A stretch of DNA of 64,000 bases from Escherichia coli (lineage in GTDB: Bacteria > Pseudomonadota > Gammaproteobacteria > Enterobacterales > Enterobacteriaceae), in assembly GCF_024700885.2 (NCBI RefSeq), contig NZ_CP117016.1. One strand, given 5' to 3'. Below are positions 34,534-42,051 of this stretch, piece after piece. The notes beneath the pieces were generated by a model. That model saw only the letters and a list, made by a program, of their open reading frames with translations, searched no databases and was not told where the DNA came from. Each line of letters opens with the position of its first letter. Within the stretch, counting starts at the first letter, position 1. Both the position numbers and the translations under genes were made by a program.

Positions 34534-35319
34534 TCATTCGTCTTCTGAATCAGGTGTAATGATCTTTACAGAACCATTCCGGCAGTGCGTAACATAATCT
34601 GCCGGTAACGGACGATCGCTAATCAGAACGTCAAATGCAGAGATCGGTGCGAGGCTGGCAGAGGCCACTTCATCGAACAACGCGTGGCGGGCGAGCAAAA
34701 TTTTCCGTAGTCCACGGTTCATCGCTTTACGCTTAGTGGCAAGATCTTCAGGGTTAAACCAGCTGACGCCAAAGTGATTATGCACACCGCTGGCGGAAAT
34801 AAATATTTTTCGCGGATTGAGAGAGTCTAATGGCGAAGAGTTACTGGCATCGTAAAAAGCATCACTTCTGGCACGATACGTACCACCACAAAGTATTGCT
34901 GTTACATTAGGCTTTTCATTCAACGCAACAAAGACGCGATGTGAGTAACAGATACCGGTGAAGGTGATTGCATCCGGGATCATGCTTATAACGAGTGGTA
35001 TCTCCTGACCATTATCAAAGAAGATCAGATCATTTTCATTAACCATTCCGGCAGCCAGAATTGCAATAGGTAAGTCATCACGATGATTTTTTGGAACGTC
35101 ATGGATTACTGGCATGGATGGCGCGGGTTTATTCACCATTACAATATAGCCACCCAGTAGGGTCAGTGGCAGAGGTTCATCTTCCTGATGGAGATCGCGA
35201 CGAATAGTCATTACAGAAACTTCCAGCATTCGCGCTGCGTCTTTCAAATGGATTCTGTCGGTTTTCTTAAGCAGTTCCATCAAACGTCGGATACGCTCTT
35301 TTTGCTTCGTTTCCATCAA
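34534..35319 (-). CDS. deoQ: DeoR-family regulator of the deoxyribose operon (DeoQ-like)
   Basis: 261 aa; N-terminal HTH (IRRLMELLKKTDRIHLKDAARMLEVSVMTIRRDL) and sugar-binding domain; divergent from the deoK operon. Confidence 0.7.
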   Translation of the reverse strand: MMETKQKERIRRLMELLKKTDRIHLKDAARMLEVSVMTIRRDLHQEDEPLPLTLLGGYIVMVNKPAPSMPVIHDVPKNHRDDLPIAILAAGMVNENDLIFFDNGQEIPLVISMIPDAITFTGICYSHRVFVALNEKPNVTAILCGGTYRARSDAFYDASNSSPLDSLNPRKIFISASGVHNHFGVSWFNPEDLATKRKAMNRGLRKILLARHALFDEVASASLAPISAFDVLISDRPLPADYVTHCRNGSVKIITPDSEDE

Positions 35320-35621
35320 CTCTCTCTCCGTAAGAATGTTATAAAAATAACATTTTGGCGTTAGTAAACATTGTTTTCATTACCATACTATACGACCGCC
35401 CCTTTGAAATGAAAAGGGTATAGGCTGCTGAGTTTTCGGTATTAATCCTGTTAGGTTGCTTATGATTAGATCGTGTTGGCCTGAGTGATGAGACTGGAAG
35501 TCTATTAAATAAACATCGGGTTGATGTGCTAATCGCGATCTCAGTCACAAATGATGCAAAAGTAACATGCTAATGTTATTTAAATACCATTGTTATGCGA
35601 AAGTTTATAAGAGGTAGTGAA

Positions 35622-36542
35622 ATGGACATTGCAGTTATTGGTTCCAATATGGTGGATCTCATTACTTACACTAATCAGATGCCTAAAGAAGGAGAAACTC
35701 TGGAAGCACCTGCCTTCAAAATCGGATGTGGTGGGAAAGGTGCTAATCAAGCGGTGGCGGCGGCTAAATTGAATTCAAAAGTCCTGATGCTGACTAAAGT
35801 AGGTGATGATATTTTTGCGGATAATACTATTCGTAATCTCGAATCATGGGGAATTAATACCACTTATGTTGAGAAGGTCCCCTGTACCAGCAGTGGTGTT
35901 GCACCGATCTTTGTTAATGCCAACTCGAGCAATAGTATATTAATAATTAAGGGAGCGAATAAATTTCTTTCCCCGGAAGATATCGATCGAGCTGCAGAAG
36001 ATCTGAAAAAATGCAAATTGATCGTTTTACAACTGGAAGTTCAACTGGAAACAGTTTACCACGCGATTGAGTTTGGTAAGAAAAATGGTATTGAAGTGTT
36101 ATTAAATCCGGCTCCGGCATTGCGTGAGTTAGATATGTCTTATGCCTGCAAATGTGATTTCTTTATCCCGAATGAAACAGAACTGGAAATATTAACCGGT
36201 ATGTCGGTTGATACTTATGATCATATTCGTTTGGCCGCACGTTCGTTAGTTGATAAAGGGCTGAACAATATTATTGTTACCATGAGCGAAAAAGGCGCAT
36301 TATGGATGACCCGCGATCAGGAAGTCCATGTTCCTGCATTCAAAGTAAATGCTGTTGATACTAGTGGCGCTGGTGACGCATTTATTGGTTGCTTTTCCCA
36401 TTATTATGTTCAAAGCGGTGATGTTGAAGCCGCTTTGAAAAAAGCCGCTCTCTTTGCCGCTTTCAGCGTCACAGGGAAAGGTACGCAATCATCTTATCCG
36501 AGTATTGAACAATTTAATGAATTTTTAACCTTAAACGAATAA
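35622..36542 (+). CDS. deoK: Deoxyribokinase DeoK (PfkB/ribokinase family)
   Basis: MDIAVIGSNMVDLITY..GGKGANQAVAAAKL.. and C-terminal DTSGAGDAF motif; matches DeoK of Salmonella and pathogenic E. coli as recalled. Confidence 0.85.
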   Translation: MDIAVIGSNMVDLITYTNQMPKEGETLEAPAFKIGCGGKGANQAVAAAKLNSKVLMLTKVGDDIFADNTIRNLESWGINTTYVEKVPCTSSGVAPIFVNANSSNSILIIKGANKFLSPEDIDRAAEDLKKCKLIVLQLEVQLETVYHAIEFGKKNGIEVLLNPAPALRELDMSYACKCDFFIPNETELEILTGMSVDTYDHIRLAARSLVDKGLNNIIVTMSEKGALWMTRDQEVHVPAFKVNAVDTSGAGDAFIGCFSHYYVQSGDVEAALKKAALFAAFSVTGKGTQSSYPSIEQFNEFLTLNE

Positions 36543-36569
36543 TCATCCTGCACAGTTAAAGGTAGCACT

Positions 36570-37886
36570 ATGAACGATAAAAACATCATTCAGATGCCTG
36601 ATGGGTATCTGAATAAGACTCCCTTGTTCCAGTTTATTTTGTTATCGTGTTTATTCCCGCTATGGGGATGCGCAGCTGCATTAAATGACATATTAATCAC
36701 TCAATTCAAAAGTGTATTTTCGCTAAGTAACTTTGCTTCAGCATTGGTGCAGAGCGCATTTTATGGAGGTTATTTTTTAATTGCAATACCAGCATCCCTT
36801 GTGATTAAAAAGACCAGTTATAAGGTGGCAATTTTAATTGGCCTGACGCTGTATATTGGTGGTTGTACACTTTTTTTCCCTGCCTCGCATATGGCAACCT
36901 ACACTATGTTCCTTGCAGCTATTTTTGCGATTGCGATTGGCCTGAGTTTCCTTGAAACTGCAGCGAACACATACAGTTCAATGATCGGTCCAAAAGCCTA
37001 TGCCACATTGCGGCTCAATATCAGCCAGACCTTTTATCCGATTGGTGCTGCGTCTGGTATTTTATTGGGCAAATATCTGGTTTTCTCCGAGGGGGAAAGC
37101 CTTGAGAAGCAGATGTCCGGAATGAACGCCGAGCAAATTCACAACTTTAAGGTGCTGATGTTAGAGAACACCCTTGAACCGTATAAGTATATGATTATGA
37201 TTCTTGTTGTGGTCATGGTGTTGTTCCTTTTAACCCGCTTCCCAACCTGTAAAGTGGCACAGACAAGTCACCATAAATGCCCGTCAGCAATGGATACGCT
37301 GCGCTATCTGGCTAAAAATTCGCGCTTTCGTCGTGGTATTGTGGCTCAATTCCTTTATGTGGGTATGCAGGTCGCAGTATGGTCATTTACCATCCGTCTG
37401 GCACTGGAGTTGGGCGATATCAACGAACGTGATGCTTCAAACTTCATGGTCTACAGCTTTGCCTGCTTCTTTATTGGCAAGTTTATAGCCAACATCCTTA
37501 TGACACGTTTTAATCCGGAAAAAGTCCTAATTCTCTATTCCGTTATAGGGGCGCTGTTTCTGGCATATGTTGCACTGGCTCCAAGTTTCAGCGCGGTCTA
37601 TGTCGCCGTCCTGGTAAGTGTTTTGTTTGGCCCTTGCTGGGCGACGATCTATGCAGGAACACTGGATACAGTTGATAACCAACATACAGAAATGGCAGGA
37701 GCAGTCATTGTTATGGCTATTGTTGGCGCAGCGGTGGTTCCGGCAATTCAGGGGTATATTGCAGATATGTTCCACTCACTACAGCTTTCATTCCTGGTTT
37801 CTATGCTCTGTTTTGTCTATGTCGGTGTCTACTTCTGGCGTGAAAGCAAAGTACGTAATGCACTGGCTGAAGTCACAGAGTCCTGA
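36570..37886 (+). CDS. deoP: Deoxyribose permease DeoP (FucP-like MFS transporter)
   Basis: 438 aa, about 12 predicted TM segments, directly downstream of deoK. Confidence 0.8.
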   Translation: MNDKNIIQMPDGYLNKTPLFQFILLSCLFPLWGCAAALNDILITQFKSVFSLSNFASALVQSAFYGGYFLIAIPASLVIKKTSYKVAILIGLTLYIGGCTLFFPASHMATYTMFLAAIFAIAIGLSFLETAANTYSSMIGPKAYATLRLNISQTFYPIGAASGILLGKYLVFSEGESLEKQMSGMNAEQIHNFKVLMLENTLEPYKYMIMILVVVMVLFLLTRFPTCKVAQTSHHKCPSAMDTLRYLAKNSRFRRGIVAQFLYVGMQVAVWSFTIRLALELGDINERDASNFMVYSFACFFIGKFIANILMTRFNPEKVLILYSVIGALFLAYVALAPSFSAVYVAVLVSVLFGPCWATIYAGTLDTVDNQHTEMAGAVIVMAIVGAAVVPAIQGYIADMFHSLQLSFLVSMLCFVYVGVYFWRESKVRNALAEVTES

Positions 37887-37897
37887 GGAGAATCGTT

Positions 37898-38911
37898 ATG
37901 AGTACGCGTATTTATTTGTGGCGGGCGCTTTTTGGCGAAAAACCTCGTATCTTGCTGGAAAATAGTGATTTTACTGTCACGTCTTTTCGCTATGACAGTG
38001 GTGTCGAGGGGCTTAAAATTGCAAACAGTCGTGGACATTTAATTATTCTTCCCTGGATGGGGCAGATGATTTGGGATGCGCAATTTGATGGACACAGTCT
38101 CACCATGTGCAATATGTTTCGCCAGCCTAAACCGGCGACAGAGGTGATAGAGACCTATGGCTGTTTTGCCTTTCATTCAGGTTTGCTGGCTAATGGCTGC
38201 CCATCTGCGGAAGATACTCATCTGCTACACGGTGAAATGGCCTGTGCCGCGATGGATGAAGCATGGATGGAATTAGAGGGAGATATGTTACGCCTTACCG
38301 GGCGTTACGAGTATGTAATGGGGTTCGGGCATCATTATCTGGCTCAGCCAACAGTGGTCCTTCACAAATCCTCTACATTGTTCGATATTAAGATGGCCGT
38401 AACCAATCTGGCTTCTGTAGATATGCCACTACAATATATGTGCCACATGAATTATGCATATATACCAAATGCTACGTTCAGCCAGAATATACCGGACGAA
38501 ATATTAAGGTTGCGTGAATCAGTACCTTCGCATGTTAATCCCACCGCCCAGTGGCTGGCGTTTAATCAACGAATTATGCAGGGAGAAGCCTCTCTGTCGA
38601 CGCTGAATCAACCGGAATTTTATGATCCAGAAATAGTCTTCTTTGCAGACAAACTGGACGCTTACACAGATCAGCCAGAGTTTCGCATGATCGCTCCCGA
38701 TGGCACTACGTTTGTTACTCGTTTCTCCAGTGCTGAACTAAATTATGTGACACGCTGGATCCTTTATAACGGCGAGCAACAGGTAGCCGCCTTTGCATTA
38801 CCAGCAACCTGTCGACCTGAGGGGTATCTTGCCGCGCAACGTAATGGCACGCTGATTCAGGTTGCACCGCAGCAAACGCGCACTTTTACAGTCACCACAG
38901 GTATTGAATAA
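37898..38911 (+). CDS. deoX: DeoX/DeoM-like putative deoxyribose mutarotase
   Basis: 337-aa ORF terminating the deoK-deoP operon; position and size match deoX. Confidence 0.7.
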   Translation: MSTRIYLWRALFGEKPRILLENSDFTVTSFRYDSGVEGLKIANSRGHLIILPWMGQMIWDAQFDGHSLTMCNMFRQPKPATEVIETYGCFAFHSGLLANGCPSAEDTHLLHGEMACAAMDEAWMELEGDMLRLTGRYEYVMGFGHHYLAQPTVVLHKSSTLFDIKMAVTNLASVDMPLQYMCHMNYAYIPNATFSQNIPDEILRLRESVPSHVNPTAQWLAFNQRIMQGEASLSTLNQPEFYDPEIVFFADKLDAYTDQPEFRMIAPDGTTFVTRFSSAELNYVTRWILYNGEQQVAAFALPATCRPEGYLAAQRNGTLIQVAPQQTRTFTVTTGIE

Positions 38912-39682
38912 CCACATTTACGCGCTTATCGCTAAGGTAAGCGCCATTCTGCCTGCAGAAATCTACCTGCCGAAGTGATGCTTCAGTGGTAAGCGGCTCA
39001 CCAAAACCGTATTGATATTTACTGAGAGGCCAGCTCAACTATTTAGAGCAACAGATCGTGTACCCGGTTTGCCGGCCAGTCCTAGATATGCTCAATGACA
39101 TAACGCATCCATTTTTCTGGCTCCACATCGTTCAGACGGCATGTGCACAATACCAAAACGGCAAGCGTTTGAGGCGAAGCACATATATACAGGACAGCTT
39201 TATCGTCATTGCATTACCGAAACGGCTTTCATCGCTGCAAGGTTTTTCTTTGCCGGAATGTATCCGGTCAGCTTATAACCTGCTGATAACCTGCGCCCTT
39301 AAACATGCGGGCTGCAGCCTGTTGAGCCTGCCTGAAATGAGCTAGGATTAGGTGAAACACCTATCCATCTTGGTGTACTGTACATATGAAGCATGTGCCT
39401 TGATGCAGCTTGTAGCGATTTGTATGCAACCGATGACATTAATCCGTAAGACATGGGAAAAGATAGCAACTGAGATCCTAAGTTTGAATGTTATCACGCC
39501 TGCGTTTGAGAAACTTCGTTGGAAAAGTAACCTCGGTAAACCCCCGTGCCCTGAGCTCATTCCGGAGATGCTGTCATAGTGACCGTCTTGCTATTGGTGG
39601 GAATTGGAGACTGAATGTTTTGACAAGACAGTCCGGGAAATTCTGGGTGTAATCATATAAGACAGGTGATATTGCGTTCTCC

Positions 39683-39753
39683 AACCCTTTAGCTCAGTGG
39701 TAAGAGGACTCATAATCGCTTGGTCGCTGGTTCAAATCCAGTAAGGGCCACCA
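39683..39753 (+). pseudogene. Degenerate tRNA-Ile2/Met-like sequence (CAU anticodon loop), probably a pseudo-tRNA
   Basis: aaccctttagctcagtggtaagagg-actcataatcgcttggtcgctggttcaaatccagtaagggccacca aligns with E. coli ileX/ileY (GGCCCCTTAGCTCAGTGGTTAGAGCAGGCGACTCATAATCGCTTGGTCGCTGGTTCAAGTCCAGCAGGGGCCACCA) but has acceptor-stem mismatches and lacks about 5 nt of the anticodon stem. Confidence 0.6.
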
Positions 39754-40351
39754 TCACACACTGCCACTGGCCCATTGCGCCATGCCCGGCACATATCAGT
39801 CACAGAGCCTTTCGGGGATAATTTGCAGAGTGGTCTGGCTGACTTTCTCTGTAGGCAGATCGTTCCCGCTTGATAGCTCATCCCCCAAAGAAACGTCACG
39901 ATATTTGGTATTTTCAAAATTCAAAAAGAAAACCCGCAGAGTGGCAACAGAGATTAAAAAGTTTGAGAAACGCGATCTGGCACAGGCGGTGATTGGTGTT
40001 GGAGTGATGGTAGATTTTATCAGCCGGATAATGTCGGTTCTGGCTGATAGCTGGGGTTGTTGGTGTGGTCTTCCTATTGATGAAAAAACAAGCAATTACT
40101 TGGCATATTATCTGTAACACTTTAAAACTGTTAAGAAGATCACAATTCATTATGTTTATTATTGTCTGGCCGGAGGGATATTTGTTAAAAAGTGCGCCGT
40201 GTGGTGAATCCCCCTGTGCGGTGGGGCGACTGGTGTACATAGCATTTATTATGTTATGAGCGAAGCCTACGCGGGTTCAGTGACACCGACTGAATTCACC
40301 GGGAGGCACCCGGCACCATGCAACAGACGCAAGTTAGGCTAAGCCTTATAC

Positions 40352-40379
40352 CCCTGTAAGTTTTTTACAGGGTTTTTTT
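40352..40379 (+). terminator. Rho-independent terminator-like hairpin
   Basis: ccctgtaa-gtttt-ttacaggg followed by ttttttt. Confidence 0.6.
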
Positions 40380-40448
40380 GTGCACAGAAAACCCCCAGCT
40401 AGGCTGGGGGGGCCGGAAAGCTTTCAGCTTTGAGCCAGTTATTAAAAC

Positions 40449-40607
40449 TCTGAACCGGTTCCTGGCACGAATATCATTCCCGGCCTGCGCTTTGATTATC
40501 TCAGCGACTCCGGCGGGAACTTCAGCCGCAGTCTGAATCTTTCGCAGGAATTGGGCGATTATTTCAAAGTCAAAGCAGGGGTTGCCCGAACCTTTAAAGC
40601 CCCAAAC
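40449..40607 (+). pseudogene. iroN: iroN internal fragment upstream of the IS150 insertion
   Basis: Translation ..EPVPGTNIIPGLRFDYLSDSGGNFSRSLNLSQELGDYFKVKAGVARTFKAPN matches the middle of the salmochelin receptor IroN; no iroN 5' sequence precedes it. Confidence 0.8.
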
Positions 40608-42051
40608 TGTACTGACCCCAAAAAGTTGGACAGTTAAACACGAGGCATATAGGTCTGATTCCGATATTCAATTGGAGTCAGACCTTTTAATTTCAGGCTA
40701 ATTCTTCTGCTGTTGTAGTATTCAATATATTCCGTAACAGCATCCTTCAGTTCGCTTATATTACTGAACTCATCAAGATAAAAACACTCCGACTTTAAGG
40801 TTCCAAAGAAACACTCCACCACAGCATTATCCAGACAATTGCCTTTTCTGGACATGCTTTGTTTAATACCATGTTCTTTAAGGATATTTTGATATCTTCT
40901 CATACGATACTGCCATCCCTGGTCAGAGTGCAGAACAGGATGCTCGTGAGGATTAAGCATTTTTGAATGCCTGATCGAGCATATTCTCAACCATGTTCAT
41001 CACTGGTCTTTCCGAAAGGCTGTAAGAAATAACATCATTGTTGAAGAGATCTATTACTGGAGACAAATACAGCTTGCGCCCATTGACTGCAAATTCAGTA
41101 ACATCGGTAACCCACTTCTCGTTTGGCCGCGTAGCCTTGAAATCTCTTTGGAGAACATTGGGGGCGGTTTGCCCTACCTCTCCTCTGTAAGAGCGGTATC
41201 GCTTGACCTTAATCGCTGCCTTAAGTGAGAGGGTTCCCATCAGGCGCTGAACAGCTTTATGGTTAATCTGTTTCCCTTCTCGATGAAGAGACAGCGTTAC
41301 CCTACGGTATCCGTATCGGCCTCTATTCTCATGATAAATCTCACCAATACGCTTTTTAACGTCCGCATACTTGTCAGGCTTGCTGAGAGCCTTTAGATGG
41401 TAATAAAACGTACTGCGCGGTATCTCCGCAGCCCTGAGAAGCTCATCAAGAGGATAAAACTGCCTTAGCTCGTTGAGTACTTTCACTTTTTCGTGGAATG
41501 AGCTAAGGCTTTCAGCTTTTTTAGATACACAAGCCGCGTTTCAAGAAATCGAACTTGCCTTTCAAGATCCTCAATGCGTCGGTCTTTTGACAGCTCCAAT
41601 GCTGATGCCGCTTTTTCTGGATCAACTGATATTGCAATGTTTCTTTTGGTGCCAATCTTGAGCGCGCGTAAACCAGCTTCTCCGCGCTCTTCATAAACCT
41701 TCAGCCACCTGGCTACAGAACCACTACCAGCAAGCATAAAGTGAGCAGCAGCCTGATTAAGGGACATGTGCTGCTCGATCACAGCTTTCACGACCTTAAT
41801 ACGCAACTCTGGATCAGCACTAACACCTTTAGGTTTGGGAATTAAACCTTTTTCTCCATGTTTTTCATAGAGGGCAACCCATGTCCTGACCTGGATTCGG
41901 GGGGCACCAAAACGTGCCGAGATGATCCTGTAACCATCATCAGTAGTGAAGTAGTGATTCACGACTTCAAGGCGCTTTTCAAAAGGGTATTTTGGCTTTG
42001 ACATATCAGGGGCTATTCCATTTCATCGTCCAACAAAATGGGTGCAGTACA
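40608..42051 (-). mobile_element. IS150 (IS3 family) with frameshifted insK, inserted in iroN
   Basis: 1444 bp; ends tgtactgacccc.. and ..gggtgcagtaca; flanked by 3-bp target duplication AAC (40605-40607, 42052-42054). InsJ 41483..42004 (MSKPKYPFEKRLEVVNHYFTTDDGYRIISARFG..); InsK split into 40953..41486 and 40634..40990. Confidence 0.9.

Follow-up and report, generated by a model that had tools for sequence, protein, structure and literature searches.

The 71-nt sequence at positions 39683-39753 (+) of the Escherichia coli DNA analysed here (a 64-kb stretch, referred to as the window) is best explained as a dead ileZ gene of a lambdoid or Stx-type phage, lying in a sub-kilobase scrap of prophage within an afa/deoK island, with neither a tRNA function nor a role in integration. 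We put the probability of this explanation at about 0.93. The sequence of the relic reads AACCCTTTAGCTCAGTGGTAAGAGGACTCATAATCGCTTGGTCGCTGGTTCAAATCCAGTAAGGGCCACCA.

Alignment with K-12 ileX, K-12 ileY and prophage ileZ identified the sequence as tRNA-Ile2(CAU)-like. The D-loop, the 7-nt anticodon loop CTCATAA with its CAU anticodon, the variable loop, the T-arm (GCTGG/TTCAAAT/CCAGT, with a G49·U65 wobble), the 3' acceptor strand, the discriminator base and the CCA end (ACCA) are all retained. The relic and the phage ileZ share 65 of 71 bases with one 5-nt gap, and blastn against the tRNA of phage Evi gave E = 1e-21. Two lesions set the relic apart from its relatives. Exactly 5 nt are missing at the junction of the D-stem and the anticodon stem, and this gap, whose placement is ambiguous by about 1 nt, removes the last base of the D-stem, nt 26 and the first three bases of the 5' strand of the anticodon stem; owing to the deletion, the 5-bp anticodon stem and 4-bp D-stem of a functional tRNA are incomplete. 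Moreover, positions 1-2 are AA where the relatives have GG, which creates the mismatches A1·C72 and A2·C71 and leaves five pairs in the acceptor stem instead of the 7 bp of a functional tRNA.

ARAGORN with default settings called no tRNA in the 64-kb window. At the relaxed setting -ps95 it does call the relic, with a malformed D-arm of three pairs and two mismatches in the anticodon stem. When one of the two lesions was repaired in silico, whichever it was, a call was regained, so both lesions jointly put the relic below the threshold. With the Rfam tRNA model RF00005, whose gathering score is 29, the relic reached 30.7 bits (E = 0.02 over the full window, 3e-4 locally), with a 5-column gap located in the anticodon stem; the intact prophage ileZ reached 72.5 bits. 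The minimum free energy of the relic is -17.4 kcal/mol (z = -0.48 versus shuffles) in a fold that is not a cloverleaf, and that of intact ileZ is -33.5 kcal/mol (z = -4.0). No sigma-70-like promoter was found on the + strand upstream of the relic, and nothing is annotated over it in the RefSeq/PGAP record of an identical region (NZ_AP021935.1). Judged from its sequence, the relic is almost certainly a degenerate and non-functional tRNA-Ile2-like element, and we infer that it is neither transcribed nor endowed with any function. The initial annotation had likewise described a degenerate tRNA-Ile2-like sequence whose D-loop, CAU loop and T-arm follow its intact relatives, with two mismatches in the acceptor stem and about 5 nt lost from the anticodon stem, and had considered it unlikely to fold into a functional tRNA; the alignments, the ARAGORN result, the Rfam scores and the predicted fold all agree with that description.

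The tRNA body was also considered as a pointer to the origin of the relic and proved to be indecisive. Apart from the 5-nt gap, the relic differs by 5 substitutions from K-12 ileY, by 6 from ileZ and by 7 from K-12 ileX. The A of the T-loop (TTCAAAT) is common to the relic and ileZ, and is replaced by G in both ileX and ileY; T6/A67 is common to the relic, ileZ and ileY. At positions 43-44 (TCGCTTGG, TT) the relic matches ileX and ileY and differs from the four phage and prophage ileZ copies examined, which are mutually identical. The TT could represent an unsampled ileZ allele, two point changes or a gene conversion; an ileZ allele with TT at these positions was not found in the phages or genomes searched. 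Since the body is not decisive, the assignment to ileZ rests on the flanking sequences.

The features of the region, together with their counterparts in two intact prophages designated L002 and L003, are presented in Table 1. Upstream of the relic, a flank-only blastn search aligned 39584-39675 with L003 3001-3093 at 75% identity over 93 nt (E = 6e-13), and tblastn placed amino acids 331-350 of the methyltransferase at 39601-39660, a weak (E = 0.018) and colinear match. This upstream match to the methyltransferase is short, with an identity of just 70-75%. Downstream, 39776-39994 is 83% identical to L002 3293-3506 over 221 nt (E = 8e-63, flank only), and the spacer is 78% identical to that of phage Evi. 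The deletion of about 194 bp that follows the argN stub has removed the rest of argN and the entire argO. In the terB stub, amino acids 1-37 of the L002 TerB protein were matched by tblastn with 68% identity (E = 2e-13), and the profile phrog_632 ('tellurite resistance') matched with E = 9.5e-8 over profile positions 2-35 of 143. The DUF3927 fragment was recovered by tblastn (93% over 15 amino acids, E = 4e-6) and by the TciB-like profile phrog_1470 (E = 2e-6), and PGAP annotates a partial DUF3927 pseudogene over it. A mechanically called open reading frame of 111 amino acids (39782-40117, +) joins the TerB/TciA N-terminus (aa 44-77) to the TciB/DUF3927 segment (aa 70-89), an in-frame fusion via an internal deletion. 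Flank-only BLAST searches against the flanks of K-12 ileX and ileY gave nothing significant (best E > 0.04).

Table 1. Features of the region around the tRNA relic and the corresponding positions in intact prophages.
Position in window	Strand	Feature	Counterpart	Remarks
34534-38911		deoK-type operon: DeoR regulator, ribokinase-family kinase, FucP-like permease, aldose epimerase
39309-39565	+	Fragment of P2-like phage replication endonuclease (gpA) gene	Klebsiella/Escherichia P2-like phages	78.3% identity, E = 4e-53
39584-39660	+	3' end of lambdoid-prophage DNA methyltransferase gene (last ~20 codons and stop)		blastn, tblastn, order
39584-39682		Methyltransferase tail and spacer	L003 3001-3127	BLAST/MAFFT
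39683-39753	+	ileZ (tRNA-Ile2(CAU)) pseudogene		5-nt deletion, GG>AA at 1-2, four further substitutions
39685-39775		tRNA-Ile, spacer and first bases of first tRNA-Arg	L002 3001-3098	BLAST/MAFFT
39761-39778	+	argN (tRNA-Arg UCG) relic, first ~17 nt		7-nt spacing after ileZ as in Stx2 phages
Absent from window		Rest of tRNA-Arg(UCG) and all of tRNA-Arg(UCU)	L002 3099-3292
39776-39907	+	Spacer between tRNA cluster and tciA/terB in intact prophages		Matches to L002 and phage Evi
39776-39994		Spacer and terB start	L002 3293-3506
39908-40018	+	tciA/TerB-family (tellurite-resistance-like) gene, first 37 codons		Remainder deleted
40004-40048	+	tciB/DUF3927 internal fragment (aa 18-32)	L002 3899-3943	Fused in frame to terB stub
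40169-40383	+	STnc100 prophage sRNA, full length		Rfam RF02076, 136.4 bits (GA 47), model positions 1-206
40202-40321		STnc100 region	L002 4052-4156
40634-42004		Frameshifted IS3		iro remnant beyond

The order of these pieces is that of intact phages. Prophage L002 carries, in this order, genes for an HTH protein, tRNA-Ile, tRNA-Arg, tRNA-Arg, a TerB-family protein, DUF3927 and DUF6645, and prophage L003 carries those for the Q antiterminator, a hypothetical protein, a DNA methyltransferase, tRNA-Ile, tRNA-Arg and tRNA-Arg, followed by holin and lysozyme genes. The window is also colinear with phage Evi and with phage Lahn2, in whose record the three tRNA genes are named ileZ, argN and argO. 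After repair of the tRNA, a query that included the next 24 nt gave a gap-free alignment of 98 of its 100 nt to the ileZ|argN junction annotated in Stx2 phages (90.8% identity, E = 1e-30), and coverage of this query is 80% or more in 259 phage records. The remnant lacks Q, the lysis genes and other phage genes, and STnc100, the methyltransferase tail and the terB and DUF3927 stubs stand in phage order. Among the hallmarks of the phage cluster, an ileZ homologue, argN downstream of it and the late-region context are present in the remnant and argO is missing, an absence that is consistent with deletion in a remnant.

The gpA fragment upstream of the methyltransferase tail is annotated by PGAP as a frameshifted partial pseudogene. 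A PHROG search with the small open reading frames of 39058-39652 gave zero matches; the P2 fragment is supported by the DNA-level gpA match only. This fragment adjoins the lambdoid scrap, and debris of at least two unrelated phage types is hence juxtaposed at this site.

STnc100, which has been treated as a prophage marker (bioRxiv 10.64898/2026.05.13.724894), survives structurally intact in the window though every neighbouring phage gene is destroyed. The intact prophages carry it at the same relative position with scores of 104-161 bits, and 40202-40322 of the window is 93% identical to phage Evi. A terminator hairpin at 40352-40372 followed by a T-run forms a terminator-like site. The sequence of the STnc100 region occurs in up to 31 copies per E. 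coli genome, and an STnc490-like match lies at 40390-40476 (+; 52.3 bits, slightly below the GA of 56). Other Rfam matches in the window were those to the Ysr251 antisense RNA at 8403-8596 (-; 192.8 bits) and to group II intron domains at 59235-59314 (-) and 60751-60830 (+), on opposite strands (53.8 and 50.9 bits, respectively).

Several complete E. coli chromosomes, NZ_AP021935.1 among them, contain this region with 100% identity. The annotation of that record lists, in order, malX and a MalY/PatB-family gene, agaR and the deoK-type operon. Downstream of this operon, two small pseudogenes, the IS3, truncated copies of iroN, iroE, iroD and iroC, and an afa-type chaperone/usher/AfaD cluster are found. 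By its cargo, the island appears to be an afa/deoK pathogenicity island resembling the published one of strain AL862, in which the same cargo, an afa-type cluster and the deoK operon, has been described as the afa-8/deoK island (PMC7545054, PMC3326304). The modules occur in different combinations. Strain NQ3 combines the deoK operon with the gpA fragment and the relic but lacks the iro genes, and carries IS4 and IS200 at the right end; in strain SCU-104 the relic and the iro remnant are present and the deoK operon is replaced by IS elements. In NQ3 (L011, NZ_CP024720.1) an IS100 is inserted right after the relic at 7270-9225, and 89 bp corresponding to window bases 39764-39852 flank it on both sides, a length far above that of an ordinary target duplication by an IS. 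The homology of the deoK operon ends at about 38915 in many E. coli genomes, including EcN, and at about 39273 in strain E22, and from these differing end points it follows that the right-hand junction of the operon varies between islands. The seams between the modules are IS elements, and the relic lies in a mosaic junction of phage debris and IS elements.

The initial annotation had located the relic between the deo operon and the iro remnant, which is correct, and had interpreted it as what is left of a tRNA integration site that marks the boundary of two formerly separate islands. According to such an interpretation, a chromosomal tRNA-Ile2 gene of the ileX/ileY type would once have served as an island attachment site and would now, in decayed form, be the seam of two fused islands. 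The tRNA body, marginally nearer to ileY than to ileZ and with ileX/ileY bases at positions 43-44, is in line with this, and the mosaic junction is real, the deoK homology ending at about 38915 and the IS3 and iro remnant beginning at 40634. We nevertheless regard this origin as very improbable, because the flanks of ileX and ileY are dissimilar, both flanks of the relic match sequence from inside lambdoid prophages, and the argN stub lies at the distance from ileZ that is seen in phages. In the annotation of NZ_AP021935.1 (PGAP) no tyrosine integrase is present within 20 kb on either side, where it lists only IS transposases, and the 25-nt 3' end of the tRNA occurs a single time in the 64-kb window even with three mismatches allowed. 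A search of the 36-44 kb interval found no relevant repeats, and the scan of one genome per species found no chromosomal locus with matching flanks. The seams made by IS elements, and the occurrence of deoK and the relic without iro in NQ3 and of the relic and iro without deoK in SCU-104, also argue against a scar of island fusion, as does the presence of the 5' half of the tRNA in the relic. The proposed boundary therefore holds loosely, as a mosaic junction, but one composed of phage debris and IS elements rather than a tRNA target site.

The relic might alternatively still be functional, either as a non-canonical tRNA or as a tRNA-like element (a processing signal or decoy) that is co-transcribed with STnc100. 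Its Rfam score slightly exceeds the gathering score (30.7 versus 29) and ARAGORN calls it at the relaxed threshold, but the model so obtained is malformed, and the folding energy is no better than that of shuffles, with no cloverleaf. The T-arm, the anticodon loop and the CCA end are intact, and the neighbouring STnc100 is of full length; on the other hand, the + strand has no sigma-70-like promoter upstream, G18 is mutated in NQ3, and none of the neighbouring genes in the phage scrap has remained whole. As for the identity of at least 99% in about 309 genomes, conservation is equal in the surrounding junk. Continued function is thus hard to credit. We are just as reluctant to accept that the scrap was retained for the sake of the intact STnc100, with the crippled tRNA surviving in the same transcription unit, perhaps acting at the 5' end as a tRNA-like element for processing or stability; if that were true, the locus would be more than debris, namely a regulatory-RNA locus of phage origin domesticated in an ExPEC island. 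Finally, a likeness to tRNA by chance might be suspected from the failure of ARAGORN to make a call and from the whole-window Rfam E of just 0.02, but it can be dismissed in view of the 65/71 identity with a single 5-nt gap, the BLAST E values of 1e-21 to 1e-30 and the colinear flanks.

To map its distribution, the relic, extended by 100 nt on each side, was used as the query in a sensitive search of 5,426 complete E. coli genomes. At least 80% of this query was covered in 345 genomes, and 309 records were at least 99% identical. The other matches were either chromosomal tRNA-Ile genes, with similarity in the tRNA body only, or prophage loci of the types 'tRNA-Ile | tRNA-Arg | tRNA-Arg' and 'DNA-methyltransferase | tRNA-Ile | tRNA-Arg', in which the similarity ran into the flanks. 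The relic is contiguous with the deoK operon in 152 genomes, and the full arrangement of 39300-40500 was found in 120. Matches to tRNA-Ile genes were present in all but one of the genomes (5,425 of 5,426); in NZ_AP021935.1, the 100% identical record, three places match the tRNA query and presumably represent the relic, ileX and ileY. A repaired query, in which GG was restored and the 5 nt were re-inserted with the flanks unchanged, found no intact copy in these flanks among the 5,426 genomes, the best matches being the deleted allele at 97.5%. In IMG/VR, an exact-pattern scan picked up neither the relic nor a progenitor; its matches were a tRNA-Ile2 of chromosomal type at one viral contig's edge and, in an unrelated virus, two fragments of the 3' half. 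The same type of scan with one genome per species revealed neither of them outside E. coli; its three loci were all tRNA-Ile2 genes, from Candidatus Pantoea edessiphila and Xenorhabdus indica.

The NQ3 allele carries a further G>A change at the invariant G18 of the D-loop, as expected for an unconstrained sequence. The near-identity between genomes extends equally over the surrounding junk (99.6% over 5.8 kb), which indicates recent common descent and not selection. The relic is a neutral pseudogene on which no constraint is visible.

The homology, the colinearity, the lesions and the population distribution were observed directly, and the order of the decay events is inferred. A late-regulatory piece of a prophage, today about 0.8-0.9 kb long (39584 to about 40480), would have joined the E. 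coli afa/deoK pathogenicity island. The 5-nt deletion and the GG>AA change would have disabled ileZ, the deletion of about 194 bp would have taken most of argN and all of argO, and more deletions would have left terB and tciB as one fused stub. The relic would be carried passively with the island; the prophage piece as a whole would have been worn down by point mutations and by deletions of small and medium size, with STnc100 alone remaining structurally intact.

As a neutral pseudogene, the relic carries little biological weight. It does illustrate that a tRNA-like sequence in an island need not be an integration scar, since phage tRNA clusters leave relics too, and that flank homology separates the two. 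It also means that the deoK/iro junction of the afa/deoK island consists of lambdoid and P2 prophage debris and IS elements. The relic is unannotated in the RefSeq records inspected, and its 5-nt deletion is a handy marker of the island variant, present in about 6% of complete E. coli genomes.

Several known systems can be compared with the relic. Partial, unannotated tRNA sequences in mobile DNA also occur as att-site-like remnants. Two IMG/VR contigs (L007 3940-3984 and L008 11738-11782) contain unannotated 45-nt 3' halves of tRNA-Ile2 that start at the anticodon loop, and E. coli CX05 and HCM-25C-3 (H154/H155) contain unannotated 3'-half matches of 46-47 nt; by their sequence, these halves have the shape that would be expected of att-site remnants. 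Whereas such remnants comprise the 3' half only, the relic spans tRNA positions 1-76, with the 5' half included, and has neither a repeat partner nor a nearby integrase. The chromosomal genes ileX and ileY of K-12 belong to the same tRNA family as the relic, with the CAU anticodon and a nearly identical D-loop, anticodon loop, variable loop and T-arm; their flanks, however, are unrelated to those of the relic, which is moreover truncated and mispaired. K-12 ileY (L005) was itself considered as a remnant of the phage cluster on account of a short likeness to the start of argN downstream of it, but BLAST homology is confined to the tRNA body and the likeness is probably due to chance. On the scale of the island, the hallmark cargo of PAI-I/II AL862 (the afa-8 and deoK island at a tRNA-Phe gene, GenBank GQ497943), namely the afa-type chaperone/usher/AfaD cluster and deoK, is also present in the window.

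The closest counterpart is the phage ileZ-argN-argO cluster, annotated in the Stx2a phages AP012533.1 and AP012539.1 and in phage Lahn2 (AM072972.1). Among the papers searched, none was found that names the cluster as such; for Stx2a/c/d phages, a triplet of tRNA genes, 'Met'(CAU)/Arg/Arg, has been described between q and stx (PMC7366253). The layout of the cluster is Q antiterminator/methyltransferase, ileZ-argN-argO, tciA/terB, tciB, STnc100 and lysis genes, with an ileZ-argN spacer of 7-11 nt in the copies examined. The window shares with it the tRNA body, the argN spacing and the order methyltransferase, terB, tciB and STnc100, and differs in the broken ileZ, in an argN cut after about 17 nt, in the absence of argO and of the Q, stx and lysis genes, in the reduction of the neighbouring genes to stubs and in the bases at positions 43-44. 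The relic is an ordinary pseudogene instance of this well-known phage cluster.
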